Shown here: piece after piece, positions 340-61,702 of the stretch
Position numbering within the stretch: position 1 is the stretch's first letter
How the letters are laid out: the number at the start of each line of letters is the position of its first letter
DNA from: a phage
Strand: one strand, 5' to 3'
Sequence record: PZ445432.1
DNA: 64,000 nucleotides
Position numbers and translations under genes: made by a program
The notes under the pieces: generated by a model
Told to the model about the DNA's origin: nothing
The model's input: the letters and a program-made list of their open reading frames with translations, nothing else
Databases searched by the model: none

Positions 340-376
340 AATATTATATAACAAAACTGAGTTGAAAGCAAATACA
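340..376 (-). promoter_or_regulatory. conserved early sigma70 promoter (TTGCTT -35 / TATAAT -10 family)
   Basis: minus-strand reading gives tatttgctttc ... tatataat upstream of ORF 40-312. Confidence 0.5.
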
Positions 377-398
377 TTTATAAAGAAAAAGCCAAGAA

Positions 399-707
399 CT
401 AGGCATTCTTGGCTTTGAGTTCTTCAGCTCGTTTCTGTACTTCATGTAAAACCTCAGATTCGCTAAGAATCTGTGTAAACGCATAGAAAAGCTGTGATGT
501 TGTTTCTAGGGTGTAAGGAAAAGAGAAGCCAGATTTCGTTGGAAACCATTCATCATTAATATCAAGAAGCCAGTAACGAATACCCATGTATAGATTCCCA
601 CGAAATTCAGATACTGTTAATCTTACTTGTTCCCCCTCCCTCTCCCAAAGTATGATGGACTGGTCATCAACGTGTCCTTCATAGTTTTGATTTACCTGTT
701 CGCTCAT
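399..707 (-). CDS. hypothetical protein
   Basis: ORF from track, same orientation as neighbours. Confidence 0.5.
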   Translation of the reverse strand: MSEQVNQNYEGHVDDQSIILWEREGEQVRLTVSEFRGNLYMGIRYWLLDINDEWFPTKSGFSFPYTLETTSQLFYAFTQILSESEVLHEVQKRAEELKAKNA

Positions 708-757
708 TTACATATCCCAAATACACAAAAAGCCCCATATAGGGGCTAATTGTTTTC

Positions 758-1054
758 TTATCGGCCTACTGGAGAAGCACGATCTAACTCTGATTGGAGG
801 CTAGTCACACGACGAACTTTCTCAACAGGAATAAAACGGAAGCTATCATTAGTACGAGAGAAGACAAGGATTTCGTCATCTTTTGGTTGACGGATACGTT
901 CGCGTTTAATACGCTCCGCCAGATATTTATCTTGGGCCGGATCAAATTCCATTGTACCCTGAAGATATGTGGTTCCTTTCTGACGAAGTTTCTCGTAATG
1001 AAGATAAAACTCACCAAATTTTTCACACTGTGCAATAATTTCAGCTTTAGTCAT
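758..1054 (-). CDS. hypothetical protein
   Basis: ORF from track; overlapping plus-strand ORFs judged spurious. Confidence 0.5.
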   Translation of the reverse strand: MTKAEIIAQCEKFGEFYLHYEKLRQKGTTYLQGTMEFDPAQDKYLAERIKRERIRQPKDDEILVFSRTNDSFRFIPVEKVRRVTSLQSELDRASPVGR

Positions 1055-1090
1055 AGCTATAGTTCCTTTTGTTGGTGGATTTATCTAAAA

Positions 1091-1501
1091 TTATTTAGTG
1101 ATGGCTCGAATTGCTTCTGCCAGATGAGCAGCCGCTTTACCGGTCAGTTTGTCGATAATTGCATCATCCAGAAAATCTGGTGCTAAGCCAGCGTCAGAGA
1201 ATGCTGAGCGAAGGTCAGCATGAGCTTGGGCTTTGGAGGTACGAGAACCACCAGAGGCTTTTTCTGCAGTAGATGCGCTAGATTTAGAAGCAGAGCCAGC
1301 AGCTTTCTTGATATACACACCTGCTTTAGTCAGCTTCATACGAAAACCGTTCGGAGTTACACCATTTTCCTGGGCAATTTCGCTAACAATTTCCATGCTA
1401 ACATTCGGACGTTCATCCTCTGGGAATTGCTCCATACGAGCAACGTATTCGGAAGACATTTTTTCGAACAGTTCATCAGTCCACTGAGTTGGAGTAGTCA
1501 T
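1091..1501 (-). CDS. hypothetical protein (Ser/Ala-rich linker)
   Basis: ORF from track. Confidence 0.5.
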   Translation of the reverse strand: MTTPTQWTDELFEKMSSEYVARMEQFPEDERPNVSMEIVSEIAQENGVTPNGFRMKLTKAGVYIKKAAGSASKSSASTAEKASGGSRTSKAQAHADLRSAFSDAGLAPDFLDDAIIDKLTGKAAAHLAEAIRAITK

Positions 1502-1604
1502 ATTTTATATTTCCTTAATTAAGAATTAAACAGAATAGTTCTTTCAAACTATGAGAATATTATATCAAGAATTATAGGATTAAGCAACTGAAATTTTTAA
1601 GTAG

Positions 1605-1880
1605 TTACTCCACCAGGCCAACAGCGAGCATATCATCAATGCTGGCAACCTCCCAATCGTCCGCAATAGCTTCGCATACTGTTAATGAAACAACCTCGCT
1701 ATATGGATAGTTACCGGCTACCCAGGTATGCTGAGTAGCTACATCTGAGTCAGCATCTAAAGTTAATAACACTAAGCCGTTATTATCGTTATCCCAGCTT
1801 CTACGATATAGCGTTTTTACTTCCCCATCTTTAAGTAAATCAGTTAGTCTACTCACTACGTTTTCCTTTTTCTTTATCAA
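1605..1880 (-). CDS. hypothetical protein
   Basis: ORF from track. Confidence 0.45.
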   Translation of the reverse strand: MIKKKENVVSRLTDLLKDGEVKTLYRRSWDNDNNGLVLLTLDADSDVATQHTWVAGNYPYSEVVSLTVCEAIADDWEVASIDDMLAVGLVE

Positions 1881-2553
1881 GTTTCAAGGCAGCCTTAACA
1901 GCTTCGTTAATCAGTGTGATAACTTCTTCCCGGGACCATTTATACCCCAGAGATTTTACGTCTACCCCCAGCTTTTCCAGATGCTTTACAGAAGCCAATT
2001 CATAATTCATATAATGAACGTTCTGTTGTTTGCCTTCTGATAGAAGCCATACACGGTAGCAACCAACAGGATTATCCATTGCTTTTTTGATTTCACCGAT
2101 ACACTGGTATCCAGGAACCCAAACAAGCTCACCTACCTCAAATTCTTCTGCTACAGCATCATCAGGAATAATTGGTGGATTCAATGGATCTACAATATCA
2201 TTCAAACGAAGCAGAGCACCATATCGTTCCAGAACAGATTTAACCATTGCTACAGAGCGGTAATTACGATCGGCAATCTCTTCAAAAGAATCGCCAGATA
2301 GATACTGTTCAATAACGTTGGCTAACTCAATACCTTCAATGAGTGTACCACGTTTCTTTTTCTTCATTTCGGCAACTTGAATCTGGCGGTCTTGCCACTC
2401 TTCAATCATCCTTTCCATAGTTGGATTGGATGATACACCGAGCATTTCACATGCTGCTTTCTTAGTACCACCGTTCTCCAGATGCTCTATAACTTTTTTA
2501 AAGACTTCATCCGGGATTTCATGGATGTGTTTCTTTCTGCGAGAACCAGCCAT
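1849..2553 (-). CDS. putative helix-turn-helix DNA-binding protein
   Basis: N-terminal HTH-like segment GGTKKAACEMLGVS; sits directly downstream of the PN25-like promoter. Confidence 0.55.
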   Translation of the reverse strand: MAGSRRKKHIHEIPDEVFKKVIEHLENGGTKKAACEMLGVSSNPTMERMIEEWQDRQIQVAEMKKKKRGTLIEGIELANVIEQYLSGDSFEEIADRNYRSVAMVKSVLERYGALLRLNDIVDPLNPPIIPDDAVAEEFEVGELVWVPGYQCIGEIKKAMDNPVGCYRVWLLSEGKQQNVHYMNYELASVKHLEKLGVDVKSLGYKWSREEVITLINEAVKAALKLDKEKGKRSE

Positions 2554-2577
2554 ATTTAAACTCCTCTCTCAAATTTA

Positions 2578-2625
2578 TGAATCTATTATACAGAAAAATT
2601 TTCCTGAAAGCAAATAAATTTTTTA
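2578..2625 (-). promoter_or_regulatory. strong early promoter, matches T5 PN25 as recalled
   Basis: minus strand reads aaaaatttatttgctttcaggaaaatttttctgtataatagattcataaatttgagagaggag. Confidence 0.7.
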
Positions 2626-2865
2626 TGATTCTTTGAGCAAAGAAGAAAGTTCAGCATATACTTTATCTAACTCAAACCCTATGCGAAGAGATACGTTAGT
2701 CCTCCGTTGTTTAAGTAACCACTCGGATATGTTAGGGATGCCAGCTAGTCTAGCAGGAACCACCCTACATAGCTTCTCCGAAGTATCATAAACAGGGACT
2801 TTACGTTCTTTTACTGGAAACTTCCTTGTTTCCCATTTTTTATTCTTCACTGTCATTTCTAGCAC
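2623..2865 (-). CDS. hypothetical protein
   Basis: ORF from track. Confidence 0.4.
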   Translation of the reverse strand: MLEMTVKNKKWETRKFPVKERKVPVYDTSEKLCRVVPARLAGIPNISEWLLKQRRTNVSLRIGFELDKVYAELSSLLKES

Positions 2866-5827: not shown

Positions 5828-6330
5828 CTAATGCTTCATATACTAGCTCATACTAGATGCAATATAACTTACAGAATCACGTCTCGGTAGTTTTTCACTC
5901 CTCCCATCTCACTTCACAACCACCTCATACTAGGTTGCTTCGAGGCCTTACCAGGGTTCCTATGGGACGCAGATCGCTAAGTATTCTATTAACTATTTGT
6001 TTAAAAACTAACACGTAACAGTTAAAACAACCCTTAATGGGGCAGCCTAACTGTTCCGTATCGCGGATTGTAAACAAGAAAAAACTTTTTCGTAAAGCTC
6101 TAGCAACGTACCTTATGCAGCTATTTACGGGTCATCGATTCCTCTCGCCGTAAATCCATTGTCAGCTTCACTAAGAAAAATTAGCAAAATCAATTTTTAC
6201 TAATGTCTCTCAATTCAATATAAATATTATAGCAAGATTTTGAGCATCATGCAAGTAAATTTTTAAGGAGAATGCTATCAGTGTCTTTGAGCACAGTGAA
6301 AACCGAGCCAAAATGACTCGGTTATGTGGA

Positions 6331-9580: not shown

Positions 9581-9602
9581 ATCTTTCTCCTCTCAAATTT
9601 AT

Positions 9603-9648
9603 AAATCTATTATACATAAATTTTTAGCTGAAAGCAAATAAAATAAAA
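9603..9648 (-). promoter_or_regulatory. conserved early sigma70 promoter
   Basis: minus strand: tatttgctttcagc ... tatgtataatagat. Confidence 0.5.
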
Positions 9649-9679
9649 GCCAGGTCGACTAGCAACCCGGCTGATTAGC

Positions 9680-11696: not shown

Positions 11697-11869
11697 AGAA
11701 TTTTCACACCTATTATACTAAACATTATCCACTATGTCAATTAAAATTTTCTTTCGCCACCTAATACTGTAATATTCCGCGTATAAATAAATGATTATCT
11801 AATACCATACATTTCCCGTTAAAAGCAAGCAAATTTTTTATTTAAATGCAATATCATAGGCTTATTTAA

Positions 11870-11910
11870 AATTGTAGTTGCTTTTTACTGCATATACTGG
11901 TATAATATAT
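11870..11910 (+). promoter_or_regulatory. sigma70 promoter (TTGCTT, 17-bp spacer, extended TGgTATAAT)
   Basis: agttgctttttactgcatatactggtataat upstream of phoH. Confidence 0.5.
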
Positions 11911-11973
11911 TTGTAAGTTGATAAACAAGATCTCTTTGTTGATCCTCTGTTAGAAGCGAAGTACACTATAGGA

Positions 11974-15419: not shown

Positions 15420-15448
15420 AAGGAGATCTTCGGGTCTCCTTTTTCTTT
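15420..15448 (+). terminator. rho-independent terminator
   Basis: ggagatcttcgggtctcc hairpin followed by tttttcttt. Confidence 0.6.
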
Positions 15449-15513
15449 GAAATTTTACTTGCTAATCGCTACCAGATTTGCTATAATATCTCCATTAGTT
15501 AAGGAGATTAGTT

Positions 15514-16037: not shown

Positions 16038-17183
16038 ATGACAACTTTACTTAACTTAAACTGGGATCATACCAATAAAGATCTATTTCTCGGTGATTCT
16101 CTTGGTATTGCAGATTATGTACGAGTAGCCCATCCAGAGCTGGAAAGGCTGGCGTTATTAGCTCGCTCTCAATTCTGGACTGAAACTGAAATCAGTCTGG
16201 AAGCAGATAAGAAACAATGGCCTAATCTCCCACGAGAAATTCAGGAAATTACCCTCCTGAATTTAGCATGGCAGACTCAAACTGATTCCTTTATCAGTCG
16301 AGCGCCTGAAGCAGCTATTATGCCACTTGTAAGTCGTCCAGAATTGGAAGGTATGCTAAAGCAGTGGAGCTACTTCGAAGACCTGCATAGTCGCGCCTAT
16401 AGCAATATTATTCGTAATGTGCTGACTGATCCAGCAGAATTTATTGATTCTGTAACCAAAAACCAGGAAGCATTCGCACGCATCGCTGATTCTGTTGAAC
16501 TGTTCGATGAACTGTATCAGTTAGGTCAGTATTTCCTCGCAGTACGCGATCATCGTGGTGACAATACATATCCAGAAACTGAGTTCCCTGAAGTTAAACG
16601 TGAAACTCAGGCTAAACTATTAGACGCTTACTTTGCGATCTATGGTCTGGAAGCAATGCAGTTTTACGCATCCTTTGCATGTACTTTTGCTCTAGCAGAG
16701 AACGATATTCTGCAAGGTATTGCTAAGAACCTGCAATTAATCGCTAAAGATGAGGCTCTGCACACCCAGATGTCTAAAGCAATCATCCAGATTATGTTCC
16801 AGCAGTTTGACAAAGATCTGGTAGATGAAGCAGTGGCTAAAGCACCAGCACAGCTCCTGAAAACTCTGAAAACTGAAATTGAATGGGGTCATTTCATTTT
16901 CAAAGGTCGTAGTCTGATTGGCTTGAATGCAGAACTTCTAGAAGAATATCTGTACTTTGTGGGGCGTAATGCATTTATGCACATCGGTGTAGAATGGCCT
17001 AGTCATTTACCAGTAATCACTAAGAACCCCATTCCGTGGATCATGAACTGGCTGGATACCACTTCTTTACAGCCTGCTCCACAAGAAATCCAGATTGGTG
17101 CAGCCTACCGTGTAGGTCAGGTAACTGAGACCTCTACTGATACTCTGAAAGATCTGGGTAATGAATTTGGAGATTTCTTATGA
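16038..17183 (+). CDS. nrdB: ribonucleoside-diphosphate reductase small subunit
   Basis: di-iron/tyrosyl-radical R2 fold motifs; 381 aa. Confidence 0.9.
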   Translation: MTTLLNLNWDHTNKDLFLGDSLGIADYVRVAHPELERLALLARSQFWTETEISLEADKKQWPNLPREIQEITLLNLAWQTQTDSFISRAPEAAIMPLVSRPELEGMLKQWSYFEDLHSRAYSNIIRNVLTDPAEFIDSVTKNQEAFARIADSVELFDELYQLGQYFLAVRDHRGDNTYPETEFPEVKRETQAKLLDAYFAIYGLEAMQFYASFACTFALAENDILQGIAKNLQLIAKDEALHTQMSKAIIQIMFQQFDKDLVDEAVAKAPAQLLKTLKTEIEWGHFIFKGRSLIGLNAELLEEYLYFVGRNAFMHIGVEWPSHLPVITKNPIPWIMNWLDTTSLQPAPQEIQIGAAYRVGQVTETSTDTLKDLGNEFGDFL

Positions 17184-18549: not shown

Positions 18550-18553
18550 CTCA

Positions 18554-18585
18554 AATAGCCCTTCGGGGCTATTATATTTAAATTT
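18554..18585 (+). terminator. rho-independent terminator
   Basis: aatagcccttcggggctatt hairpin with T-rich tail. Confidence 0.55.
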
Positions 18586-18620
18586 CATTTGCTTATTTAG
18601 TGAAATTTAAATATAATATA
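18580..18620 (+). promoter_or_regulatory. conserved early sigma70 promoter
   Basis: catttgctta ...17 bp... tataat. Confidence 0.55.
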
Positions 18621-18642
18621 TTTTATAAATTGGAGGTATATA

Positions 18643-19400: not shown

Positions 19401-19409
19401 TAAGTAAAT

Positions 19410-19452
19410 TAAAAATTCAATTGCTTAAAGCCCTCTAATTTAGTATAATATT
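19410..19452 (+). promoter_or_regulatory. conserved early sigma70 promoter
   Basis: aaaaattcaattgcttaaag...tagtataat. Confidence 0.55.
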
Positions 19453-19476
19453 CGTATTGAAAGTGAGGAGGGCTTT

Positions 19477-19761: not shown

Positions 19762-20207
19762 AGATTACTGAATTTAAAGGTACTTATAGTTTTTTATCTA
19801 ACTTTTATTTATCACCAATTACTTTCGAATATCTAAATGAGATATGGCATGCTGATACTGTAGAACATGCTTTTCAGGCTATGAAATCCGACCAAAAAGA
19901 TGATGTAGCTCATGTGCTGCGCTCCCTAAATGCAGGAGTTGCCAAACGTAGAGGACGTAAATTAACTCTGCGCTCTGACTGGGATAAGGTAAAAGATGAT
20001 GTAATGTTAGAGCTTTTACGGTTAAAGTTTGCAATCCCTGATTTGAGGGACAAACTGTTAGCAACAAAAAATGCAACTTTGATCGAAGGAAATACCTGGG
20101 GAGATACATACTGGGGTGTTTGCCGAGGCATCGGGGATAATACTTTAGGAGTTCTTTTGATGCAGGTAAGGTCTGAAATTAAAAGAAGTTTACAGTTAAT
20201 AAATTAA
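19758..20207 (+). CDS. NADAR/YbiA-like (DUF1768) domain protein
   Basis: GTYSFLSNFY ... HAFQAMK ... GDTYWG pattern typical of the YbiA/NADAR family. Confidence 0.6.
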   Translation: MKITEFKGTYSFLSNFYLSPITFEYLNEIWHADTVEHAFQAMKSDQKDDVAHVLRSLNAGVAKRRGRKLTLRSDWDKVKDDVMLELLRLKFAIPDLRDKLLATKNATLIEGNTWGDTYWGVCRGIGDNTLGVLLMQVRSEIKRSLQLIN

Positions 20208-20246
20208 AAATTCATTTGCTAAACGCTTCAAATTCTAGTATAATAT
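20205..20246 (+). promoter_or_regulatory. conserved early sigma70 promoter
   Basis: aaaaattcatttgctaaacg...tagtataat. Confidence 0.55.
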
Positions 20247-20282
20247 ACTTCATAAATTGATAAACAAAAAGGAAAATAAATA

Positions 20283-21104: not shown

Positions 21105-21806
21105 ATGAAAGTAAAACCATTTGGTATGCTAGATATTGAATCTCTAGGAACTCCGGGGGATTGTGGTACTACTCATATCGCAATGCCTTCTTTCGCTTTT
21201 GTGGCTATGCATGGGATTGATAAAGACCCTGACTTAGTATTTGCTACTTTGGATGTGCAGGATCAGCTTAATTCTGGTGCCAAAGTTACAGCATCTACTC
21301 TAGCATTCTGGATGGATCAAGCTAAAAATAGCCCGTCTGCTATTCACATTATGGAAGCTATGAAGGAACGTAATCCAAAACTGATTGCCTTCCAAAATGG
21401 TAAACATCATTGCACTACTAAATTAGGCTCAAACTATGCTGCCTTCTCTATGGCTCAAAATATTATGGAGTTGGCTCTAGGCGAAAATGCTTTGTATTAT
21501 GGCAATGGCCCAGAGTTTGATATGACTATCTACTCTGCAAACACGTTCCATGCTGGAACCAATGAAGAGGTAGTTCCGTGGAAATTCTGGAATTTAGGCA
21601 ATGTTCGATCTCTTCGTAATCTCTGGATGCAAGCGGGTTATAGTTACAAAGATCTAGAGGCTGAAGGTATTAGCTGGGCAAAAGCTAAAATGGAGAAGAT
21701 GGACACCATTCGTTATGGGATCTATCCGGTTAAGCACGACCCAGCATTCGATGCCCTAGTTGAGGGCTATTGTGTTGCAGCTATGATCGAAAAAATGAAA
21801 ATTTGA
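21105..21806 (+). CDS. hypothetical protein (possible DEDD-type exonuclease, weak)
   Basis: N-terminal LDIESLG resembles exonuclease motif I; weak. Confidence 0.45.
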   Translation: MKVKPFGMLDIESLGTPGDCGTTHIAMPSFAFVAMHGIDKDPDLVFATLDVQDQLNSGAKVTASTLAFWMDQAKNSPSAIHIMEAMKERNPKLIAFQNGKHHCTTKLGSNYAAFSMAQNIMELALGENALYYGNGPEFDMTIYSANTFHAGTNEEVVPWKFWNLGNVRSLRNLWMQAGYSYKDLEAEGISWAKAKMEKMDTIRYGIYPVKHDPAFDALVEGYCVAAMIEKMKI

Positions 21807-21840
21807 TTTGCTTCCGGCTCCAAAATTCTGTATAATATAT
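21798..21840 (+). promoter_or_regulatory. conserved early sigma70 promoter
   Basis: atttgatttgcttccgg...ctgtataat. Confidence 0.55.
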
Positions 21841-21877
21841 TTATAAATTTGAGAAAACAATAAAAGGAAAAACAAAT

Positions 21878-22752: not shown

Positions 22753-23124
22753 TAATTTAAAAGCTAGTAAATCGGTAGACGAAAGCCCAAGCATCTTACC
22801 TCGCAGCAGCGGTTGAAATACGAGGTTAAATAAGACCGCTGACCATACTATAAAGTATAATCTATTGGAGATTATGTTTATTACATCAGACATTTAATCT
22901 GACACGTAAAAACAAAGCGTCGTTGATATTACCGACACAACTTCAAAGATCAACATTTAAGTATGAAAGCTGAAAAGTTTAAAGAACTCAAACTTCTAAA
23001 CTTCTAAAGCTAAAAGATGCAAAGTATTCGTTGATGATTCAAACCCTAGATCAAAGGTACATGGCTCATAAGATATGGCCTGTGGCGCCTCTAGGCTGTT
23101 TATCGGTTTACTAGTTTCACAATT

Positions 23125-23166
23125 TAAAAATGTATTTGCTAATTTATTAAGTTATCTGTATAATAT
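23125..23166 (+). promoter_or_regulatory. conserved early sigma70 promoter
   Basis: aaaaatgtatttgctaattt...ctgtataat. Confidence 0.55.
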
Positions 23167-23194
23167 ATTTTTAAATTGATGAAACGAGGCTATT

Positions 23195-24028: not shown

Positions 24029-24478
24029 ATGAAGGCAGCTTTGCTTTTAGTAGCTGCCCTTACCTTCAGCTTCAATAGTCATGCGACCTACGACTCAAAG
24101 CAGATTGATTGCATTGCAAAAAATATCTACTTCGAAGCACGAGGTGAGGGCATAAAGGGAATGACGGCGATTGCACACGTTACTAAAAACCGTGTTAACT
24201 CTGGTACTTTTCCTGATTCTTACTGTAAAGTAGTATATCAGTCTAACCAGTTCTCTTGGGTATCTAAGAGACCAAAAGTTGATAAAACTGATGAGGCTTG
24301 GAAAACCGCCAAGAATTTAGCTAGAGTGATATACTACGTTGATTCACCACAAGATCCTACACATGGAGCGTTATACTTCCATAGTGGTAAAGATAAACCG
24401 CGCTGGACAAAGAAGTTTAAGAAAACAACTAAGATTGAGGGACATACATTTTATAAGCCTGTTGTCACTAAAACTTAA
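24029..24478 (+). CDS. secreted SleB/CwlJ-type cell-wall hydrolase
   Basis: signal peptide plus NIYFEARGE motif typical of the Hydrolase_2 family. Confidence 0.65.
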   Translation: MKAALLLVAALTFSFNSHATYDSKQIDCIAKNIYFEARGEGIKGMTAIAHVTKNRVNSGTFPDSYCKVVYQSNQFSWVSKRPKVDKTDEAWKTAKNLARVIYYVDSPQDPTHGALYFHSGKDKPRWTKKFKKTTKIEGHTFYKPVVTKT

Positions 24479-24517
24479 AAATTTATTTGCTTAAATACTT
24501 AAACTTCTGTATAATAC
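24478..24517 (+). promoter_or_regulatory. conserved early sigma70 promoter
   Basis: aaaatttatttgcttaaat...ctgtataat. Confidence 0.55.
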
Positions 24518-24546
24518 TTTCATAAATTAATGAGAGGAAGCGAAAT

Positions 24547-24717: not shown

Positions 24718-25160
24718 TGGGAGAGAATATTTTAGATGTTTTGCGTAGAGCTTTGCAGGATTCTAAGTTTAATGGTTCTGATAAAGAAGTCGCTAAAAGC
24801 TATCAGACCATAATCGGGGATCTTCAGCGTATTGATAAAGATTTCATCACTTCTGAACAATTTGTGTCTTATCTCAAAGCTCAACTAAAAAGCATTAACC
24901 AGATGAAAGCTAAACTTCATGGTCAAGATCTTGATAGTTATAGCTTGCAGTCCGCTCAGTATGAATACATTCTAAATAAGTGGTTGCAGGAGTATCTGCC
25001 TCCTCAGTTATCTGATACTGAGATTCGTAAATACTTTGCAGAATTAGTTAAGCTAAACCCTGGAATTACAAAAGGTATGCTGATGAAAGCGATTAAGGAA
25101 GAATTTCCTGGGCGTTATGATGGTGGTACTGCTGCTCAGATTGCTGGCGAATTTAATTAA
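24717..25160 (+). CDS. hypothetical protein
   Basis: ORF from track. Confidence 0.5.
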   Translation: MGENILDVLRRALQDSKFNGSDKEVAKSYQTIIGDLQRIDKDFITSEQFVSYLKAQLKSINQMKAKLHGQDLDSYSLQSAQYEYILNKWLQEYLPPQLSDTEIRKYFAELVKLNPGITKGMLMKAIKEEFPGRYDGGTAAQIAGEFN

Positions 25161-25200
25161 AAATTTATTTGCTAAATGCCTATAAATTCTGTATAATATA
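25160..25200 (+). promoter_or_regulatory. conserved early sigma70 promoter driving an ORF-free region
   Basis: aaaatttatttgctaaatgcctataaattctgtataat. Confidence 0.55.
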
Positions 25201-25201
25201 T

Positions 25202-25993
25202 TAATAAATTAGAGAACAGCGGGCCGATTACGCTGAGTGCAGAATCCAAACCGGAGTGCATTGAATAGAGTCGGTGGGTTAGTTGTAAAACTAGTACACA
25301 GTGGGCGGCAATCCCGGTTAGTGGCTAGAACGTGTAAAATGGGGCGTCTGAAACCTCTCCCCTAAACTCTTCTCTAGTTTATAAATAGTGGGGTGTGGAA
25401 ATCACTTATGTAGTAACACTGCCGATCTAGTATAAACGGTATTATCAAGCCGTAACTGGTGGAAGATGTAGGTTCGAATCCTACGATCGGTAAGAACTGG
25501 ATAACTGGTGCTTTTAACGTAAAAGCTTCCGAGGTTAGTTGCGCACTGCCTAAACCACGCGGTAGTTGGTTCCAGACTAACCAACCAGTCTGCTGAATAG
25601 TTTTATTACGATTTAACTATGTCCAGGCTAAAGAAGAACTTTAGAAGGTATTCTAGGTGGTGAAGTTTTTCCTCCATATCGGAGTAGTTTTTCAAGCTAC
25701 CAACAAAGTGGGAAATGCTGACATGAGAGATGTCACTAATGGTGCACAATAGCACAGGTAATTCGCGATAACTCCTGTTGAGTAGCAGCAAAAGGCGGGA
25801 AGTCATGACCCCAAGCCTAACCGAGTCCTCAATATACCGCAGGACATAACCACTAAGTCACCCTGACTTAAACTGGAAAATAATAGACGTTACTGTATTT
25901 TGTCTTGAAATACTTAATGAGTGAGACTTATGACTCTCCCGGTATCGTCTGTATTTTTAAGAGTTTTTACGAGAGTTCTTAAAAATACTTAAA
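25202..25993 (+). ncRNA. candidate non-coding RNA region (ORF-free, promoter-driven)
   Basis: ~800 nt downstream of a consensus promoter with no plausible plus-strand ORF; contains hairpins and one tRNA-like element. Confidence 0.3.
25421..25492 (+). other. tRNA-like element (canonical T-arm and acceptor pairing, other arms unresolved)
   Basis: gtaggttcgaatcctac T-arm; gccgatc/gatcggt acceptor; D and anticodon arms did not fold canonically by hand. Confidence 0.35.
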
Positions 25994-27114: not shown

Positions 27115-27264
27115 AAGGTAGAGGATAAGTGTGTCTCTTTGGTCACTCAGCTATGACAAATACTTTACACTATATCACATTGAAAATCAAGTGGGGATAA
27201 CAATTTTGGGGTCTATCCACTTACCTGCTACCCTTAAGCATCCTGTTATTTTCCTCTAAAAAGT

Positions 27265-27308
27265 TAAAAAATTCAATTGCTTGAATGCTAAATTCTCTGT
27301 ATAATATA
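27265..27308 (+). promoter_or_regulatory. conserved early sigma70 promoter
   Basis: aaaaaattcaattgcttgaatg...ctgtataat. Confidence 0.55.
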
Positions 27309-27337
27309 CTTATAAATTTGAGAGAGAGGAATCTAGT

Positions 27338-27856
27338 ATGACTGTTGATGAACTAACAGAACATCTCTTATCTAGAGGGTTTGATACAGATAAGTATCAT
27401 TGCTGGTTAAGTCCGGAAGGATGGCTAACAGTCCCGTTGTATGACTTCTCTGGGATGTTGAGAGGCTATCAGACTTATAATCCTTCTGCTCCAAAAGGTC
27501 ATGGTAAGTGCCCCTTTGAAGCTAAATATTTTACTTATTCAACTACACAGTGTGTATGGGGATTAGAAACTCTCAATGGAGATGAAAAAGTAGTATTGAT
27601 TGCTGAATCTGTATTTAAGGCAGTTGCGTTACATAACGCTGGTTATCCAGCCCTGGCAATGTTGGGTTCTTCCCCCGGAAAAGCATTGTTAAAGCAATTG
27701 AAATTATTACCTTTTAAATTGGTAGCTGTCGGAGATAATGATCCTGCGGGTGAAAAATTTGCTAGAAAATTAAACGGCTTTGTTTCTCCTGTAGATGTAG
27801 ATGAGATGTCTACCGAAAACTTGAAAAATTTTCTTGCTATGAAGCTAAATTTCTAA
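27338..27856 (+). CDS. hypothetical protein
   Basis: ORF from track. Confidence 0.5.
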   Translation: MTVDELTEHLLSRGFDTDKYHCWLSPEGWLTVPLYDFSGMLRGYQTYNPSAPKGHGKCPFEAKYFTYSTTQCVWGLETLNGDEKVVLIAESVFKAVALHNAGYPALAMLGSSPGKALLKQLKLLPFKLVAVGDNDPAGEKFARKLNGFVSPVDVDEMSTENLKNFLAMKLNF

Positions 27857-27864
27857 TATAATAT
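27830..27864 (+). promoter_or_regulatory. sigma70 promoter for the tRNA cluster
   Basis: ttgcta, 17-bp spacer, tataat, embedded in the 3' end of the preceding ORF. Confidence 0.45.
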
Positions 27865-27876
27865 ATTTATAAATTC

Positions 27877-28627: not shown

Positions 28628-28675
28628 AACTGCCTGGTGTGATAGAGGCATCATTCCACTAATATTGGAAAACTA

Positions 28676-28992: not shown

Positions 28993-29004
28993 TCTTCCGC
29001 CAAA

Positions 29005-30785: not shown

Positions 30786-30953
30786 ATGTTTAAACTGTTA
30801 GTAGTTATCTGGTATAGTCAATCAAATAGAGCGAATACCTCCCACGTTATAGACTTTACTACTAAAAATGAAGCTGAAAAAGCATATGCTAATTTAATAG
30901 AACGCAATAAAGAATCTCGTAGTATAGTTTATGAAGTGACTAAACTTTATTAA
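30786..30953 (+). CDS. hypothetical protein
   Basis: internal ATG with AAGGA RBS; track ORF start 30759 overlaps the tRNA and is trimmed. Confidence 0.4.
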   Translation: MFKLLVVIWYSQSNRANTSHVIDFTTKNEAEKAYANLIERNKESRSIVYEVTKLY

Positions 30954-30992
30954 AAATTCATTTGCTTTCCCTCTTATTTATTGTTATAATAT
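30952..30992 (+). promoter_or_regulatory. conserved early sigma70 promoter
   Basis: aaaaattcatttgctttccc...ttgttataat. Confidence 0.55.
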
Positions 30993-31020
30993 TTATATAA
31001 ATTAATGAGAGGGAAACCAA

Positions 31021-32822: not shown

Positions 32823-32829
32823 ATTCTGA

Positions 32830-32870
32830 AATAATTCATTTGCTAAACCTCTCTTTTCTTGCTATAATAT
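32830..32870 (+). promoter_or_regulatory. conserved early sigma70 promoter
   Basis: aattcatttgctaaacc...gctataat. Confidence 0.55.
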
Positions 32871-32898
32871 ATTTATAAATTGATGAGAGAGGTTTGAA

Positions 32899-34950: not shown

Positions 34951-34954
34951 TAAT

Positions 34955-34995
34955 AAAATTTTAGTTGCTTAGATGCCCAAACTTTTGTATAATAT
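34955..34995 (+). promoter_or_regulatory. conserved early sigma70 promoter
   Basis: aaaattttagttgcttagatg...tgtataat. Confidence 0.55.
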
Positions 34996-35024
34996 GTTTA
35001 TAGATTGAGGCAAGAGGATTAAAT

Positions 35025-39509: not shown

Positions 39510-39514
39510 GATAA

Positions 39515-39553
39515 AAAAGTAGTTGACTTTTAGCCCTAGTTATTATATAATAT
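39515..39553 (+). promoter_or_regulatory. sigma70 promoter (TTGACT, TATAAT)
   Basis: agttgacttttagccctagttattatataat. Confidence 0.5.
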
Positions 39554-39584
39554 ATACATAAATTAGTTAAGAGAGGTATATATT

Positions 39585-40281: not shown

Positions 40282-40315
40282 AAGCCTGATCTTAGCGGAT
40301 CAGGCTTTTATTTTA
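40282..40315 (+). terminator. rho-independent terminator
   Basis: aagcctgatc...gatcaggctt hairpin followed by ttatttt. Confidence 0.65.
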
Positions 40316-40347
40316 CTTGCTTTTTGCTAAAAATTTTGGTATAATAC
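40310..40347 (+). promoter_or_regulatory. conserved early sigma70 promoter
   Basis: acttgctttttgctaaaaattttggtataat. Confidence 0.5.
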
Positions 40348-40402
40348 TTATATAAATTGATAAGAAGGCTATCTACGCACTACAAAAAATAGGAGTATTC
40401 CA

Positions 40403-42761: not shown

Positions 42762-42849
42762 GTATATAGCTGGGGCTATAATTAAACGAGTCATACAAGC
42801 AGTAGCAATACTTATAATCATTTGTATTGCTATTGGTACAGGACTAGGC

Positions 42850-42890
42850 ATTTTAATTAAAAGTTTTATTTGCTAAAATGCCTAAGTTTC
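42850..42890 (+). promoter_or_regulatory. conserved early sigma70 promoter
   Basis: aaaagttttatttgctaaaatg...ctgtataat. Confidence 0.55.
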
Positions 42891-42928
42891 TGTATAATTA
42901 CTTTATAAATTGATGAGAGGGAAACAAA

Positions 42929-43360: not shown

Positions 43361-43367
43361 GTAATTA

Positions 43368-43408
43368 AAAAATTCAGTTGCTTCAAGCCTTAAAATTCTG
43401 TATAATAA
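43368..43408 (+). promoter_or_regulatory. conserved early sigma70 promoter
   Basis: aaaaaattcagttgcttcaag...ctgtataat. Confidence 0.55.
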
Positions 43409-43438
43409 GTTCATAAATTAATGAGAGAGGAAATTCTA

Positions 43439-46213: not shown

Positions 46214-46417
46214 ATGCAAGTATATGTCCTTACTAGAGATATAAATGAGTATAATCAGGATGGTGAGTATTTTGTAAAAGTATTCGCTGAAAAGCCAAGT
46301 AAACAACAATTATTAGATGTTGGAGTACCGGAAGACCAGGCTAAGTGTTTATTACAGGATAAAGAGTTTACTGGAGATGCTTACGAATGTTTCCACCTTA
46401 GCTGTGAGACTATTTAG
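46214..46417 (+). CDS. hypothetical protein
   Basis: ORF from track. Confidence 0.45.
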   Translation: MQVYVLTRDINEYNQDGEYFVKVFAEKPSKQQLLDVGVPEDQAKCLLQDKEFTGDAYECFHLSCETI

Positions 46418-46865: not shown

Positions 46866-47148
46866 CTATATTGTATGGTCAAACCCACTAGCAGCACTTA
46901 GTAACAAACTATTTAAAACAACGTGGGGGTATAATGAAATAGACTTAGGTAGTCACCCAATACCAAACAAACATCCCTTAGTTCCAGAGCTGTATAGGGT
47001 AGTGATAAATGGCGCGGAGTATTTGGTTGATAAATTTGACAGAAAACGTTTACTAGAGGGTATCTACGATAATTCTACATCAATAAATGAATTAGTAGAA
47101 CATGCCCAAATATATGATAAAAGCTGGATGTTAATATGGAGATCATAG
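46858..47148 (+). CDS. hypothetical protein
   Basis: ORF from track. Confidence 0.45.
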   Translation: MSSYIVWSNPLAALSNKLFKTTWGYNEIDLGSHPIPNKHPLVPELYRVVINGAEYLVDKFDRKRLLEGIYDNSTSINELVEHAQIYDKSWMLIWRS

Positions 47149-48902: not shown

Positions 48903-48931
48903 CTTGACATTATTTGAGCTGTATGTTATAA
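48903..48931 (+). promoter_or_regulatory. perfect-consensus sigma70 promoter (TTGACA, 17 bp, TATAAT)
   Basis: ttgacattatttgagctgtatgttataat; no ORF for ~1.7 kb downstream. Confidence 0.6.
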
Positions 48932-49225
48932 TAATCTCATAGATTAAAAACATCAACTTGTTTTTACCTCTAGGCCGTAGATTTACATCATTCCTCGTAG
49001 GAAAACACTTGATGACGGTTCTGTTCGCAGGTTCTCGTCAATTGTTCTTCCTCCCCGAGACTCAGGAGGATGTATCAAATCGCACGCGCCTAGAGGGGCT
49101 AACTCTCATGAAATGGGGGTATATTAACTTTTAAATAACTGATAAATATTTAAAGGCAATATCTGTGTTCAAGATGATACACCTGTTGCCGCTCATCTGC
49201 TAGGATGGCACAACACTTTCTTCTA

Positions 49226-50065
49226 GACTCCTAAGTTTCTAGGAAATTGATAAGCACAAATTCTAGAGATCGCACAAAAATATTCATCGGATTTGCACAT
49301 ATTCTAGGAAATTGATAAGTACAAAAATATTCATCGGATTTGCACATATTCTAGGGCAGTTTCTCTCAAACGTTACACATACTAGGCGGTTAATATAGGG
49401 CGGTTATAGGGAGGGCGGTTATTTCTAGGAGACATTTTTTGAAAACACATTTCTGGATTTTACTGTCGGATTTGCACACTGCATTTCTAGAAATTTATGG
49501 TCGGATTTGCACAAACGCCTAAGTTTTTAGGAACATATAATCTCTTGAAAATGGCAGCATTATTTCGGGCCGAAGGCCCATGATTGCCTGAGTTTTTAGA
49601 GCCACAGGAATTTTCACTTGTCAAGCTATTTTGCCCCATTTTGCTAATAAAATTTTACTTTTTCTGCACCTATCTCAAATTTCCCCAAATTATCTCAACT
49701 CTTCCCCAAAACCCCGCAAATCAGGTGCTCCGCACCAATCCTGCGCCCACACCATTCTAGCCTCCCAAATTTCTCTCGCTCTCTCATCTTCTCCTCAAAC
49801 CTATACAATCACACACCCTCTCATCGAAGTCACAAAAATTTCATCGGATTCGCACAAATAAACCCATGTCGGATTTGCACATATTCTAGCTAATTCCACA
49901 GGATTGATGCGCAGCATCGGATTGCTGGAGTTTTTGGGAAAATTCGTCGTCGGATTCGCACATCACAAAAGTTTTTAGGGTCGGATTTGCACACTACCAA
50001 AAATTGTCGGATTCGCACATACACGCCCGCACGTAACACCCGTGGAGCAATGTCGGATTTGCACA
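49226..50065 (+). repeat. array of ~12 direct copies of core tcggat(t/c)(t/c)gcaca, some inside longer ~50-bp repeat units
   Basis: repeated atcggatttgcacatattctag, gtcggatttgcacactgc, gtcggattcgcacat and similar, all on one strand. Confidence 0.7.
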
Positions 50066-50071
50066 AAAGCG

Positions 50072-50089
50072 CAGGGCAATTGCCCTGCG
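50072..50089. repeat. 18-bp perfect palindrome gcagggcaattgccctgc
   Basis: read directly. Confidence 0.7.
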
Positions 50090-50094
50090 ACTTT

Positions 50095-50335
50095 GAATGA
50101 GAATCATTATCATTTAAGAAGTGGAATGCAAATGATAATTATTCTCATTTAAGAAGTGGAATGATTCTCATTTAATAAGTGGAATGCAAATGATAATTAT
50201 TCTCATTTAAGAAGTGGAATGAGAACTATTCAAGAAGTGAAACGATTCTCATTAAAGAAGCGAAACGATTCTCATCCTAGAAAGGGAATGCAAATGATAA
50301 TGATTCTCATTTAAAAACGGAAGTGAGAAACACTG
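50095..50335 (+). repeat. tandem degenerate repeats of (g)attctcatttaagaagtggaatg
   Basis: about 8 copies with variants aagaagtgaaacg / aagaagcgaaacg / aaaaacggaagtg. Confidence 0.7.
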
Positions 50336-52648: not shown

Positions 52649-53641
52649 TTACTCGTTTTCGGTGTTAGTGGTAAAAGTAGAAATATCGATACCTTTTACC
52701 ATTTCATCAATCATCTCAGCGATGTTAAAACTTTGCACCATTTCCAACATTGCCGCTTCCATAGCCGCTCCTGCTACCGCTTTCGCTTTCTGGTTATTCG
52801 GGGCGTACTGGTCAACCGCTACACTCAGCAGGTTAGCGATCACTACTCGACCGATCGGCGTATCAATATAGCCTTTAATCATAAATGGCGCTTTTTTAGC
52901 CGCTACTTTCGTGATTTGAGTTAGTGCAATTTTACCCGCTTCCAGTTTTGCAGCATTTACAACAGCGGATTTATTAGCGGCAACGATGTTAGCGATCTTA
53001 GTCATGGTATTTTTTCCTTTGTTTTCAGTGGTTTGAGTGTTAACGCTTTGAGTGTTAGAATTTACAGCATGTTTTTCTATATTGTCAATAGGCTGATCTT
53101 CATCTTTCCAGAAAGAAAAGCCCGCGCTTTCTATATCCCCATCGTATACGTATGGGTATACTTCCGACGGTAGCAAAAAATTGCCATCATCATCAAAGGC
53201 CATTACAGCCGCCAGACGATACCCGTCACCGATTGACCGATTCCAGCCAACTGATAAATAACGCCAAAATGAATCAAGAAAGTTTTCAACGTCATAAAGA
53301 TCCTTATCATAAGGCTCATAATTTTCTATTGAAAAAACTTCTAAGCCCGCCCCAGCATCATAGGCTTTTACTGTGCTACCTTTTACGATTATGAAATCAG
53401 TGTCCGGCCCCCTACTAGTAAGCAGGTGATTATCCCTATTATATAAGATAATAGTTGCCCCTTGCTTATATAATGGTAGAAAACTACTCATATCATAGGC
53501 GTCGAAATCATCAAAAAAATTCTGGTGAATATCTTCGGCCTTGTTAACAAAGTGCTTAATGCTGGTTGTTCTGCTACCGTCCAGCAGGTTGCGCAGCGCA
53601 CCTTTTAAGACGGTTGCGTTATCTGGTTTATATAGCCTCAT
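52649..53641 (-). CDS. hypothetical protein (330 aa)
   Basis: ORF from track; largest gene in the inverted-repeat-bracketed block. Confidence 0.55.
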   Translation of the reverse strand: MRLYKPDNATVLKGALRNLLDGSRTTSIKHFVNKAEDIHQNFFDDFDAYDMSSFLPLYKQGATIILYNRDNHLLTSRGPDTDFIIVKGSTVKAYDAGAGLEVFSIENYEPYDKDLYDVENFLDSFWRYLSVGWNRSIGDGYRLAAVMAFDDDGNFLLPSEVYPYVYDGDIESAGFSFWKDEDQPIDNIEKHAVNSNTQSVNTQTTENKGKNTMTKIANIVAANKSAVVNAAKLEAGKIALTQITKVAAKKAPFMIKGYIDTPIGRVVIANLLSVAVDQYAPNNQKAKAVAGAAMEAAMLEMVQSFNIAEMIDEMVKGIDISTFTTNTENE

Positions 53642-53907
53642 TTGTTGGCCTCCCTCGTTAATCGGTGAGTGAATGATAAAGGCAATTTTCTAGCATAGGC
53701 AAATATTATTTTACCTTTTTATTTTCCTTGCCTAGCGCCTAGTTTTATGCTAACCGCGCAGCGGTACAGTAAAGAGCAAAACACGGTGAAGCCACCAGGC
53801 CGACGCGTTGAGGCTTTACTTTAATATTACCCCACTGCGTTTAGCTCGTTAGAAAGCGATTTAGGCCGCTTAAAATTGATTGCAGTTGTTAACACTACCT
53901 TTTTACC

Positions 53908-54015
53908 CTGTATATTTATACAGTAGGATAACCTGTGGATAAGTCTGTGGATAAGCCCTTATATCGCCGCCTATTGTGTCAAATCATTTTGTGCTGTGAT
54001 TAAGTCTGTGGATAA
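53908..54015. repeat. right inverted module with three DnaA-box 9-mers on the opposite strand and palindrome ctgtatatttatacag
   Basis: tgtggataa at 53934, 53946 and 54007; palindrome at 53908-53923; reverse complement matches the left module. Confidence 0.7.
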
Positions 54016-54039
54016 CTTAAATGATAGTTTTTCTCACTT

Positions 54040-55552: not shown

Positions 55553-55969
55553 ATGACTAACGTTAAAGCCGAAAAATCCGCAAAATTTGCTTGGAATGAA
55601 GAAAACACCCAGCAGGCGGTTACTATGTATCAGCAGTTAATTAATGAAAACGGATTAGATTTTGCAAATAGCGACGGTTTAAAAGAGATTGCGAAAGCAG
55701 TTGGCGCGGCTTCTCCCGTGTCCGTTCGGTCAAAATTGACCAGCGCGAAAGCCTATCAAAAAAGCGATAAGCCGCGCAAAGTTGGCGGCGGCAGTTCAAT
55801 CCGCAAAGCGCATTACGTGCGCGTTATTGCAAAACATGCCATCGATTCCGGCATTATCAAGGACGCCGATGATCTGGCATCACTGGAAAGCGCAAAATTA
55901 GAAACGTTGGACGTCGTGGCGCAGATGTTAGGCGTTGCCGATGAAGTAAAACAAGCCGCAGGCGAATAA
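55553..55969 (+). CDS. hypothetical protein
   Basis: ORF from track. Confidence 0.5.
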   Translation: MTNVKAEKSAKFAWNEENTQQAVTMYQQLINENGLDFANSDGLKEIAKAVGAASPVSVRSKLTSAKAYQKSDKPRKVGGGSSIRKAHYVRVIAKHAIDSGIIKDADDLASLESAKLETLDVVAQMLGVADEVKQAAGE

Positions 55970-58880: not shown

Positions 58881-59615
58881 ATGAATCAAGTTAAAACGAA
58901 TATTACCCGTAATTTCCCGCATGTTTCCCGCGTCATGATCTGGGATCTGGATGGCACTATCGTTAACTCATTCCATCGCGTAGCGCCTTGCTTTGATAGT
59001 GATGGTAATCTAGATCTGAATAAGTATAAAAATGAAGCGTGCAAACATGATTTAATAATGCAAGATACTTTATTGCCGCTTGTTACATATATGCGCCAAT
59101 GCATGAATGACGCAAATACTTTAAACATTATTTGTACCGCTCGACTGATGAGCAAGTCGGACTATTATTATTTGCGCAAACAAGGCTTGCGAGGGCGTGG
59201 GAATAGCAATATCCGTGTATTTTCCCGCGATACACTGCATAAGTATTTTGAAGCTGATAAAGTTAGCGAAATATACCACAGTAAGGACGCAGTTTATAAA
59301 AGCCACTACTTTGAGTTATTTAAGCAGTTATATCCGAACGCTGATTTCACGATGATAGACGATCATAAAGGTGTGCTAGCAGCGGCGGCATCATACGGAT
59401 TTAAAACGTTGGACGCGCAAGCCGTTAACGATATTCTATCAATCGGTGTTACATTGATAGGCGAAACCTTTATCGACGAATCTCTTGAGGATGATAATGA
59501 TTATCAGTTCCTAGTCGATCGCTTGCAATTATGTTGGGAAAGTATGACCGAGGAAGAACGCGCAGAATATAGTTGCAGCCCGCAACAATATATCGAGAAA
59601 CTAAAAGTTGCATAG
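58881..59615 (+). CDS. dmp: 5'-deoxyribonucleotidase (HAD family)
   Basis: MIWDLDGTIVNS HAD motif I; 244 aa from the internal ATG with GGAG RBS. Confidence 0.7.
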   Translation: MNQVKTNITRNFPHVSRVMIWDLDGTIVNSFHRVAPCFDSDGNLDLNKYKNEACKHDLIMQDTLLPLVTYMRQCMNDANTLNIICTARLMSKSDYYYLRKQGLRGRGNSNIRVFSRDTLHKYFEADKVSEIYHSKDAVYKSHYFELFKQLYPNADFTMIDDHKGVLAAAASYGFKTLDAQAVNDILSIGVTLIGETFIDESLEDDNDYQFLVDRLQLCWESMTEEERAEYSCSPQQYIEKLKVA

Positions 59616-59630
59616 TAATTAAAGTTGATA

Positions 59631-60330: not shown

Positions 60331-60372
60331 GAACCTCCATGTGTAATCTTATGAAATTTGGCAAAAGTCAAA

Positions 60373-60618
60373 TTAGTGCATAGAAGGGTCATCAAACCTG
60401 TGTTCTGGTCTAAACTCACGGAATCTCTTCCGCGACGCCCGAGAACCATCATTCCACTCCCGTTCAAACTCCGCACGTTTCTCATCGAACTTCCGCTCCC
60501 TTTCCGCAATCTCCCGCGATACTTCCGCAATATATTTACGATGCCTGTCGATAGCCGCAGTCATCCCGAAAACTCCCGCAAGTACCCCGATAATAAAAGC
60601 AATTATAATACTAAACAT
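60373..60618 (-). CDS. membrane-anchored hypothetical protein
   Basis: N-terminal TM helix then charged region. Confidence 0.4.
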   Translation of the reverse strand: MFSIIIAFIIGVLAGVFGMTAAIDRHRKYIAEVSREIAERERKFDEKRAEFEREWNDGSRASRKRFREFRPEHRFDDPSMH

Positions 60619-60805
60619 CTAATTCCCTCTCAATTTGCAGAATACGGGTGCTACCACAACGTTGCAGTAGTACTAGCTTTTCTAGAGCAACTTGTTGTTG
60701 TTTTACTTGAGCTTCTAGAGTTTTTAGGCGAACATACGCGTTATAAGAAACAATGAAAGTTGCCCAGACTAGTATTACTATTAGTGTAGCTACTATTTCC
60801 ATCAT
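60611..60805 (-). CDS. small TM/coiled-coil peptide (tandem paralog family)
   Basis: MEIVATLIVILVW... TM helix followed by LEAQVKQQQ coiled-coil. Confidence 0.4.
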   Translation of the reverse strand: MMEIVATLIVILVWATFIVSYNAYVRLKTLEAQVKQQQVALEKLVLLQRCGSTRILQIERELDV

Positions 60806-60908
60806 TTACGCTTCTCCGTTAATAAGGTTTCAATTCTAGCTAAGTGATTATCTAAAATACATTGCCCGATAATCACAATCCCTAGTAGTGCAATAATTAC
60901 CCATTCCA

Positions 60909-61094
60909 TTATTTACGCTCCTCTAATAAAGTTTCAATTCTAGATAATCTATTGCTCAACTGCATTAATTTAACCTCTACTTGGGTTACAGAGGTATCTA
61001 TTACACGTAAGCCTACAAAGAGAAGTATTAGTAAGACGAATATGCCAATAATTACCCATTCCATTAAATCCACCCCGCCATAGCTGCTAACCAA
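60909..61094 (-). CDS. small TM/coiled-coil peptide (tandem paralog family)
   Basis: MEWVIIGIFVLLILLFVG... then RLSRIETLLEERK; a third 35-aa copy lies at ~60808-60910. Confidence 0.4.
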   Translation of the reverse strand: MVSSYGGVDLMEWVIIGIFVLLILLFVGLRVIDTSVTQVEVKLMQLSNRLSRIETLLEERK

Positions 61095-61368
61095 AAACCT
61101 ACGAAAATAAAGAATAGAATAGTTCCGAATCCAAAGCTATTAATCCAGCTATCGTACACTTCCCCACGTCTACTTTTTCTTCTGTTTGACATATCTTTCA
61201 TGCTCCTATAAGTGCGGTATTTGAAATATTCTATAACTTGTGCACAACCAACCGTGCCTATGAACTCCTAGAAGGACTTCTACTTTTCCTACCTAGTGGT
61301 TTCTGCCAGTACACCATCCGAGAAATAAAAAATTTAGTTTACTTGGATGTCTTTTTGCTTTATACTAA

Positions 61369-61635
61369 TTACAGGTAGTTAGATTGCTCTAGTTTAAATT
61401 TACAATCACCGTATTTAAGATCAAACTGACTGAGATCCCACCACCCAAACTTAGTACGGAGCTGTACTACTGGAAAGCGATCTCCCTTAATACGAACTTT
61501 TTGAACCTTGAGGCCGTAATGCTCCTCCCCAGCACCGCCAAAAGATTTTACAAATCCCGTACAAAATGGTTTGGGAGCAGGTGCACAACCAGATAACATA
61601 GCTGCGGCAACTAGTGCAATTACAAACTTTTTCAT
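61369..61635 (-). CDS. llp: Llp-like lipoprotein (receptor-blocking superinfection exclusion candidate)
   Basis: lipoprotein signal with lipobox LSGC; divergent from and adjacent to the putative receptor-binding protein gene. Confidence 0.6.
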   Translation of the reverse strand: MKKFVIALVAAAMLSGCAPAPKPFCTGFVKSFGGAGEEHYGLKVQKVRIKGDRFPVVQLRTKFGWWDLSQFDLKYGDCKFKLEQSNYL

Positions 61636-61659
61636 ATTTATCTCTCCATTTCTAATTTA

Positions 61660-61702
61660 TGAATCTATTATAGCAAAATAGAGGGATGAAAGCAAATACA
61701 TT
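61660..61702 (-). promoter_or_regulatory. conserved early sigma70 promoter driving the llp-like gene
   Basis: minus strand: aaaaatgtatttgctttcatcc ... gctataat. Confidence 0.55.

Follow-up and report, generated by a model that had tools for sequence, protein, structure and literature searches.

The DNA considered here, called the window throughout, is a stretch of 64,000 nucleotides (nt) from a phage (sequence record PZ445432.1), and the element in question is a promoter sequence that recurs along it on both strands. Apart from 5,041 bp deleted in its tRNA region, the window matches Escherichia phage HildyBeyeler (Bas33; MZ501074.1; Demerecviridae, Tequintavirus) at 100% identity. Window positions 1-28618 equal record positions 43049-71666, and 28619-63518 equal 76708-111607. 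The last 482 nt (63519-64000), which represent the terminase small subunit gene, equal record positions 1-482, the window crossing the record's end-to-start junction. In the parts of the public HildyBeyeler record that were examined, zero promoters are listed.

Twenty-three copies of one promoter architecture

One and the same promoter layout recurs 23 times in strong form along the window, with 17 copies on the plus strand and 6 on the minus strand, where the original prediction had put their number at roughly 20 on both strands. The limits then given for the series, 340 and 61702, agree with its outermost members, both on the minus strand: the first occupies 343-371 (-10 at 343-348, -35 at 366-371) and the last 61667-61695. 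The copies were scored with a position weight matrix (PWM), 75 nt wide and trained on the 22 copies with an exact core, which yielded 23 sites at 42-75 bits against a top score of 7.5 bits among 50 first-order Markov shuffles. A two-block scan admitting spacers of 15-19 nt recovered the identical 23 sites, each with 17 nt, and found zero sites in 10 shuffles. Searching over the same spacer range brought out no extra strong copies, only divergent relatives at 39523 (+), 11740 (-) and 54147 (-), and within the window's pre-early region neither the PWM nor the two-block scan detected a strong copy. The exact core TTGCT-N18-TATAAT occurs 22 times in the window, or 24 times with at most one mismatch (3.7 expected). 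The upstream block AAAAATTCATTTGCTWAA was found 14 times with up to three mismatches (0.67 expected), TATAAT-N6-ATAAATT 19 times with up to one (0.75 expected), and the full leader TTATAAATTGATGAGAGG 8 times with up to three (0.06 expected).

In all 23 copies the -10 hexamer is TATAAT and stands 17 nt from the -35 hexamer, which reads TTGCTT in 15 copies, TTGCTA in 7 and TTGCAT in 1. The gap of about 17 bp proposed earlier is thus exactly 17 nt, but it lies between the two hexamers and not between the longer blocks that had been quoted. Adjoining the -35 hexamer, at about -48 to -37, is an A/T-rich block with the consensus tTtAAAAaTTtAt, which resembles an UP element; the six bases 3' of the -10 hexamer are likewise A/T-rich, most commonly ATATTT. 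The predicted +1 falls 7 nt past the -10 hexamer and is an A in 19 of the 23 copies, with ATAAATT exact in 14, and in most mRNA units a GAGAGG-type Shine-Dalgarno sequence stands ~8 nt 5' of the start codon. A TGn extended -10 is not a feature of the class. The canonical TG at -15/-14 is present in only 8 of 23 copies; in 10 of 23 a TG abuts TATAAT at -14/-13, as in CTGTATAAT, the form quoted in the original prediction, where it lies one base too near the hexamer to make an extended -10.

Information content peaks in the upstream block, the two hexamers and positions +1 to +7, with the spacer nearly free, and this arrangement of discrete blocks around a free spacer argues for functional constraint rather than (recent) copying of DNA. 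The copies at 27834 (+) and 25169 (+), which belong to tRNA and stable-RNA units, keep ATAAATT and are without a proper Shine-Dalgarno sequence; the ATAAATT block is therefore assigned to the promoter, and GAGAGG to translation.

Orthology to the early promoters of T5

Mapping and cloning of the early promoters of phage T5, and their use in expression vectors, go back to the late 1970s and 1980s; Gentz and Bujard reportedly described them in 1985. Judged by flanking sequence and gene order, all 23 copies correspond one-to-one to promoters annotated in T5 (AY543070): 20 map by flanking homology, 2 by a colinear high-scoring segment pair (HSP) and 1, the copy at llp, by synteny. When the window-derived matrix was applied to T5, 31 promoters outside the terminal repeat (early region and llp) scored 38-61 bits and two more scored 19 and 23. 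Scores of -16 to -36 bits were obtained for T5 PH22 (pre-early), for both further promoters of the terminal repeat to which the matrix was applied, and for those of oad, PK28b, P12 and holin. Because the pre-early and late-type promoters of T5 score negative and the early ones 38-61 bits, the motif is specific to the early class, and the earlier assignment of the copies to the early promoters of a T5-type phage is borne out by orthology and class-specific scores alike. Across 17 window/T5 orthologous pairs, the -35 hexamer, the -10 hexamer and +1 to +10 are 98-100% identical (98.8% for +1 to +10), the spacer and discriminator 92-95% and +11 to +25 84%.

The copy at 2571-2626 (-) is identical over the entire T5 feature 'promoter P-N 25' (AY543070 63043-63117); the minus strand from 2628 to 2561 reads tcataaaaaatttatttgctttcaggaaaatttttctgtataatagattcataaatttgagagaggag, then ATG. 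As in T5, it lies between the T5.110 homologue, on its upstream side, and the D2 homologue, on its downstream side, and the sole difference of the stretch from AY543070 is an extra T just 5' of the start codon, which two other T5 records have. The site homologous to 2613 (-) is annotated in T5 as 'promoter P-N 25' (AY543070, AY692264) or as 'putative early promoter T5P33' (AY587007). Published PN25 primers (PMC4447248) and the T5N25 template (bioRxiv 10.1101/042432) contain the sequence of the window copy. PN25 is a standard in vitro template for E. coli sigma-70 RNA polymerase, on which the use of ApU as the initiating dinucleotide sets +1 at the A of CATAAATT. The original prediction had thus rightly recognised PN25 on the minus strand at 2578-2625, an interval that spans about -48 to +1.

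From this match the phage had been taken for T5 or a very close relative. T5-like it is, but HildyBeyeler is a different Tequintavirus. The 75-nt PN25 block is recognisable in 509 phage records and at least 99% identical in 36 of them (Escherichia, Salmonella and other hosts), so that an exact PN25 marks the T5-like group and not T5 itself. In a pattern scan of viral contigs, those of the 80 listed loci that had two or more matches all lay in contigs of 103-128 kb, a T5-like genome size.

The repeats are accordingly read, with a probability of about 95%, as the early-class promoters of the T5-like phage HildyBeyeler, transcribed by host sigma-70 RNA polymerase. Directly observed are the way the copies are built, their enrichment and orientation, their orthology to promoters annotated in T5, and the specificity for the class; initiation by the E. 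coli RNA polymerase holoenzyme at PN25 and at some T5 orthologues, and early kinetics, would carry over from publications on T5 sequences identical or orthologous to the copies. According to Klimuk et al. 2020 (PMC7472727), it is the case that host sigma-70 RNA polymerase transcribes all three T5 gene classes, that early genes are preceded by strong promoters and located on the second-step-transfer DNA, and that early promoters have a common class-specific discriminator, ATATT. The same paper identifies P15A as an early promoter by primer extension in T5-infected cells, also reports early llp expression, and calls the mechanism of the early-to-late switch unknown. A search of one literature library turned up no map of T5 transcription start sites at genome scale.

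On this reading each copy would act as a compact expression module, made up of an UP-like block, -35, 17-nt spacer, TATAAT, A/T-rich discriminator and ATAAATT start, with initiation at the A of ATAAATT, 7 nt past the -10 hexamer. In mRNA units the transcript would open with a purine-rich, unstructured leader carrying the GAGAGG Shine-Dalgarno sequence ~8 nt from the start codon. The copies would head short early-gene operons for nucleotide metabolism, replication, tRNAs, lysis and llp, transcribable only once the second DNA-transfer step brings their DNA into the cell, and those placed right behind terminator hairpins would form terminator-promoter junctions between units.

Several observations weigh against this reading. 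The hexamers TTGCTT, TTGCTA and TTGCAT agree only weakly with TTGACA (3-4 of 6 positions), and a generic sigma-70 consensus scan is not enriched (47 hits, 57 expected) and misses most copies of the class, because TTGCTT agrees with TTGACA at just 3 of 6 positions. Only 7 of 23 copies carry the published discriminator ATATT exactly (6 as ATATTT, 1 as ATATTA); the rest have A/T-rich variants, and in PN25 it reads AGATTC. Five copies, at 6254 (-), 1587 (-), 11878 (+), 40317 (+) and 43378 (+), have a long leader or no close annotated open reading frame (ORF), the last of them because its ORF is missing from the annotation. The activity of each HildyBeyeler copy, moreover, is predicted from homology.

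The promoter class is already known, textbook material annotated in T5 records, and involves no new biology. What the copies provide is a definition of the early transcription units of HildyBeyeler. One copy reveals an unannotated ORF, and two point to units that make tRNA or stable RNA, not the annotated small 'hypothetical proteins'. The class matrix, in addition, separates early from pre-early and late-type promoters and could aid study of the unexplained early-to-late switch.

Transcription units and neighbouring features

Every copy (23/23) is co-oriented with the local downstream genes, and in 18 of 23 the predicted +1 lies 19-35 nt 5' of an annotated start codon (Table 1). The inferred units headed by the copies comprise 1-19 features, typically 2-3 genes, and two copies drive tRNA or stable-RNA genes rather than ORFs, which does not sustain the proposal that the small ORFs are individually transcribed. 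Nor do the copies stand upstream of most small early genes, as had been supposed: 19 of 120 annotated coding sequences (CDS) have one within 80 nt upstream, and only 9 of the 70 CDS of at most 120 aa. Terminator-like hairpins lie immediately 5' of the copies so marked in Table 1, and their T-run merges into the A/T-rich block of the promoter.

Table 1. Promoter copies in the window, followed by a divergent relative and a consensus sigma-70 promoter. Bits are PWM scores; T5 coordinates refer to promoter features of AY543070.
Position	Strand	Bits	T5 promoter	Downstream genes and context
329..384	-	63.0	unnamed orthologue, 65284-65358	-35 at 371-366; precedes bas33_0043, then ligA; predicted +1 24 nt 5' of start codon; terminator hairpin 416-388 just upstream
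1545..1600	-	54.3	PN26, orthologue	precedes D3 homologue; single spacer mismatch to 'promoter P-N 26'
2571..2626	-	75.2	PN25, orthologue	precedes D2 homologue; +1 = A at 2578
6212..6267	-	47.4	unnamed orthologue, 58999-59073	-35 TTGCAT; long leader before origin-binding/primase gene, next annotated start 590 nt downstream; copy (6254-) in isolated 153-nt island of T5 homology
9595..9650	-	57.6	orthologue, 55708-55782	heads 8-gene unit including Sir2-like gene; hairpin 9672-9648 abuts
11865..11920	+	56.3	orthologue, 53638-53712	heads phoH-nrdA
15446..15501	+	50.6	orthologue, 50061-50135	terminator 15420-15441 just upstream; unit of homing endonuclease gene, nrdB, dihydrofolate reductase gene, thymidylate synthase gene
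18576..18631	+	41.9	counterpart, 46937-47011	precedes bas33_0067 and RNase H gene; T5 homology stops at 18625
19408..19463	+	51.7	orthologue, 46337-46411	
20203..20258	+	56.8	PH207 ('promoter P-H 207'), orthologue	
21795..21850	+	65.2	orthologue, 44393-44467	
23123..23178	+	64.7	orthologue, 43067-43141	precedes intein-containing gene
24474..24529	+	72.7	PD/E33, orthologue	75/75 identical to T5
25156..25211	+	65.3	P16-17, orthologue	in T5 drives stable RNA 'RNAX' and tRNA-Arg
27264..27319	+	73.3	P15a, orthologue	
27821..27876	+	57.5	P15b, orthologue	75/75 identical to T5; drives tRNA-Ser directly; predicted +1 8 nt 5' of tRNA
30949..31004	+	66.9	P11, orthologue	tRNA region
32827..32882	+	64.7	orthologue, 26722-26796	heads six small ORFs
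34952..35007	+	67.5	orthologue, 24443-24517	unit including dNMP kinase, Clp-like protease, holin and endolysin genes
40304..40359	+	57.8	orthologue, 18550-18624	strong terminator hairpin directly upstream of 40317, fold -27.7 kcal/mol; T5 record annotates an overlapping terminator at the counterpart
42857..42912	+	68.5	PF30, counterpart (PF30 region scores 51.6 bits)	precedes T5.033 homologue; mapped by colinear HSP 42751-43699 to T5 16926-16005
43365..43420	+	70.9	counterpart, 16245-16319 (promoter before T5.032)	precedes ORF unannotated in public record
61653..61708	-	64.9	llp promoter, counterpart (same syntenic place; scores 42 bits)	llp/pb5 intergenic; copy (61695-) between llp (-) and receptor-binding protein gene (+); predicted +1 25 nt 5' of llp start
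39510..39565	+	24.9	orthologue, 19368-19442	divergent relative: -35 TTGACT, normal -10 and ATAAATT
11712..11740	-	14.9		consensus sigma-70 promoter TTGACA-17-TATAAT, 12/12, upstream of nrdD

The ORF behind the copy at 43378 (+) runs from 43421 or 43439 to 43717 (+), encodes at most 98 aa and occupies the position of T5.032; it is unannotated in MZ501074.1, and its likely start is 43439, after GAGAGAGG. In the P16-17 unit a tRNA-like Rfam hit (25421-25492, +, 39 bits) overlaps the annotated 'hypothetical protein' bas33_0081 where T5 has 'RNAX', and the annotated small ORFs of the unit are perhaps not genes. At the left end of the window, T5 homology begins only at 322, just downstream of the promoter at 371 (-), which makes bas33_0043 (40-312) an insertion between that promoter and ligA relative to T5. 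The gene at 23195-24016 (+), behind the promoter at 23136, is annotated as containing an intein from codon 3 onwards, and its T5 homology ends at 23197, the start codon.

The promoter upstream of nrdD (Table 1) is not of the early-class type. At 48905-48945 (+) a perfect sigma-70 consensus (TTGACA, 17 nt, TATAAT) is followed by ATAGATT; it lies past the last early gene, faces the terminal-repeat boundary and has no annotated gene downstream. Between divergent pre-early transcription units, at about 53930-54030, several DnaA-box-like TTATCCACA repeats are read on the minus strand. Beside these repeats, at 54147 (-), is a partial early-type promoter with a good -10 and ATAAATT, a poor -35 and an 18-nt spacer.

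The 5,041 bp missing from the window correspond to record positions 71667-76707 and carry tRNA genes and small ORFs. At the junction between 28618 and 28619 (28604-28633), a 15-nt stretch ending in GGGTTCGAATCCCA, from a tRNA T-arm, is identical at both ends, and the loss looks like a natural deletion between tRNA genes. Similar deletions between tRNA genes are known from classical T5 deletion mutants. The hybrid tRNA at the junction was called by neither ARAGORN nor Rfam, and the two tRNA-Ser genes of the public record at 28912-29109 (+) gave no ARAGORN call and no Rfam hit at the gathering threshold.

Alternative readings and known systems

The genome is ~61% A+T and the -35 hexamer departs from TTGACA, so that the matches might be put down to chance, or to promoters for a phage-encoded polymerase or sigma factor. 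Shuffles, however, gave zero comparable matches, and the layout of 17-nt spacer, TATAAT and start 7 nt downstream is canonical for sigma-70. T5, moreover, uses the host sigma-70 polymerase for its three classes, and the identical PN25 serves as a standard E. coli sigma-70 in vitro template. Both ideas are refuted by the enrichment figures and by published in vitro work with PN25, and their joint probability is practically nil. It is conceivable, though unlikely, that the discriminator together with the ATAAATT(G/A)ATGAGAGG leader forms a class-specific operator, at the DNA or RNA level, for joint early shut-off by a phage factor, which would either act on RNA polymerase at the discriminator or bind or cleave the common leader. 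Conservation of positions +1 to +10 equals that of the hexamers, whether paralogues are compared or HildyBeyeler with T5, and the block is lacking in T5 late-type and pre-early promoters; in addition, gpT5.026 binds RNA polymerase, weakens the -5/+2 contact on T5N25 and lowers early transcripts (PMC7472727). The effect of gpT5.026 as reported is modest, however, and the sequence calls for no additional factor: a strong promoter joined to strong translation is expected to combine a discriminator rich in A/T with an A start and a purine-rich leader. GAGAGG, for its part, is a plain Shine-Dalgarno sequence, missing from the copies that drive RNA genes, and an Rfam scan of the window returned tRNAs only, the common leader matching no family. 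That the invariant discriminator-ATAAATT block is a shared handle through which gpT5.026 or another partner switches off all early units is improbable; such a handle could work through RNA polymerase at -5/+2 or through the 5' leader that the copies share. Were it real, these 23 near-identical copies would offer a regulon already in place on which the T5 early-to-late switch could be tested.

Besides serving as early-class promoters, the copies might also be mobile recombination cassettes in the manner of promoter-early stem-loop (PeSL) elements, at which crossovers would preferentially occur and exchange gene modules between T5-like phages. Of 65 homology breakpoints between the window and T5, 7 fall inside the 23 promoter spans, with 2.0 expected under uniform placement (binomial p = 0.004). 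Those within promoter spans are located at promoter-block edges, and one copy, at 6254 (-), is itself an isolated homology island. Set against other gene junctions, the excess fades: versus T5 alone, a breakpoint lies at 11 of 23 promoter junctions and at 33 of 109 others (p = 0.14). With 136 deduplicated breakpoints from 64 T5-like loci, the figures are 15 of 23 and 57 of 107 (p = 0.36), or 15 of 23 and 20 of 34 when the comparison is with junctions of at least 40 nt (p = 0.78). On present evidence the recombination-boundary idea was rejected as very improbable, the excess being gone once the general intergenic preference of breakpoints is allowed for.

Relative to the T5 set, counterparts of P13a/b, P14a/b and P15c are absent from the window because of the 5,041-bp deletion, and T5 P12 has no counterpart in the window, its genes being absent from HildyBeyeler. 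The synthetic T5/lacO promoter is said to come from Bujard et al. in 1987. The T5/lacO hybrid of pDS/pQE-type vectors (sequence in PMC2951906) shares with the PN25 copy AAATCATAAAAAATTTATTTGCTTT, the upstream block with the -35 hexamer, and ATAATAGATTCA, which covers -10 to +1; lac operators take the place of the 17-nt spacer and the initial transcribed region, and the natural leader and Shine-Dalgarno sequence are absent. The connection to expression vectors made in the original prediction is thus sound for the upstream/-35 and ATAATAGATTCA blocks of PN25 kept in the pQE-type promoter, but not for the spacer and initial transcribed region, which were replaced. The PeSL cassettes of T4-type phages were reportedly described by Arbiol et al. 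in 2010. The window copies differ from them in showing no breakpoint excess over other gene junctions, and resemble them in consisting of many near-identical early promoters, often beside a hairpin, distributed across a region of small early genes.

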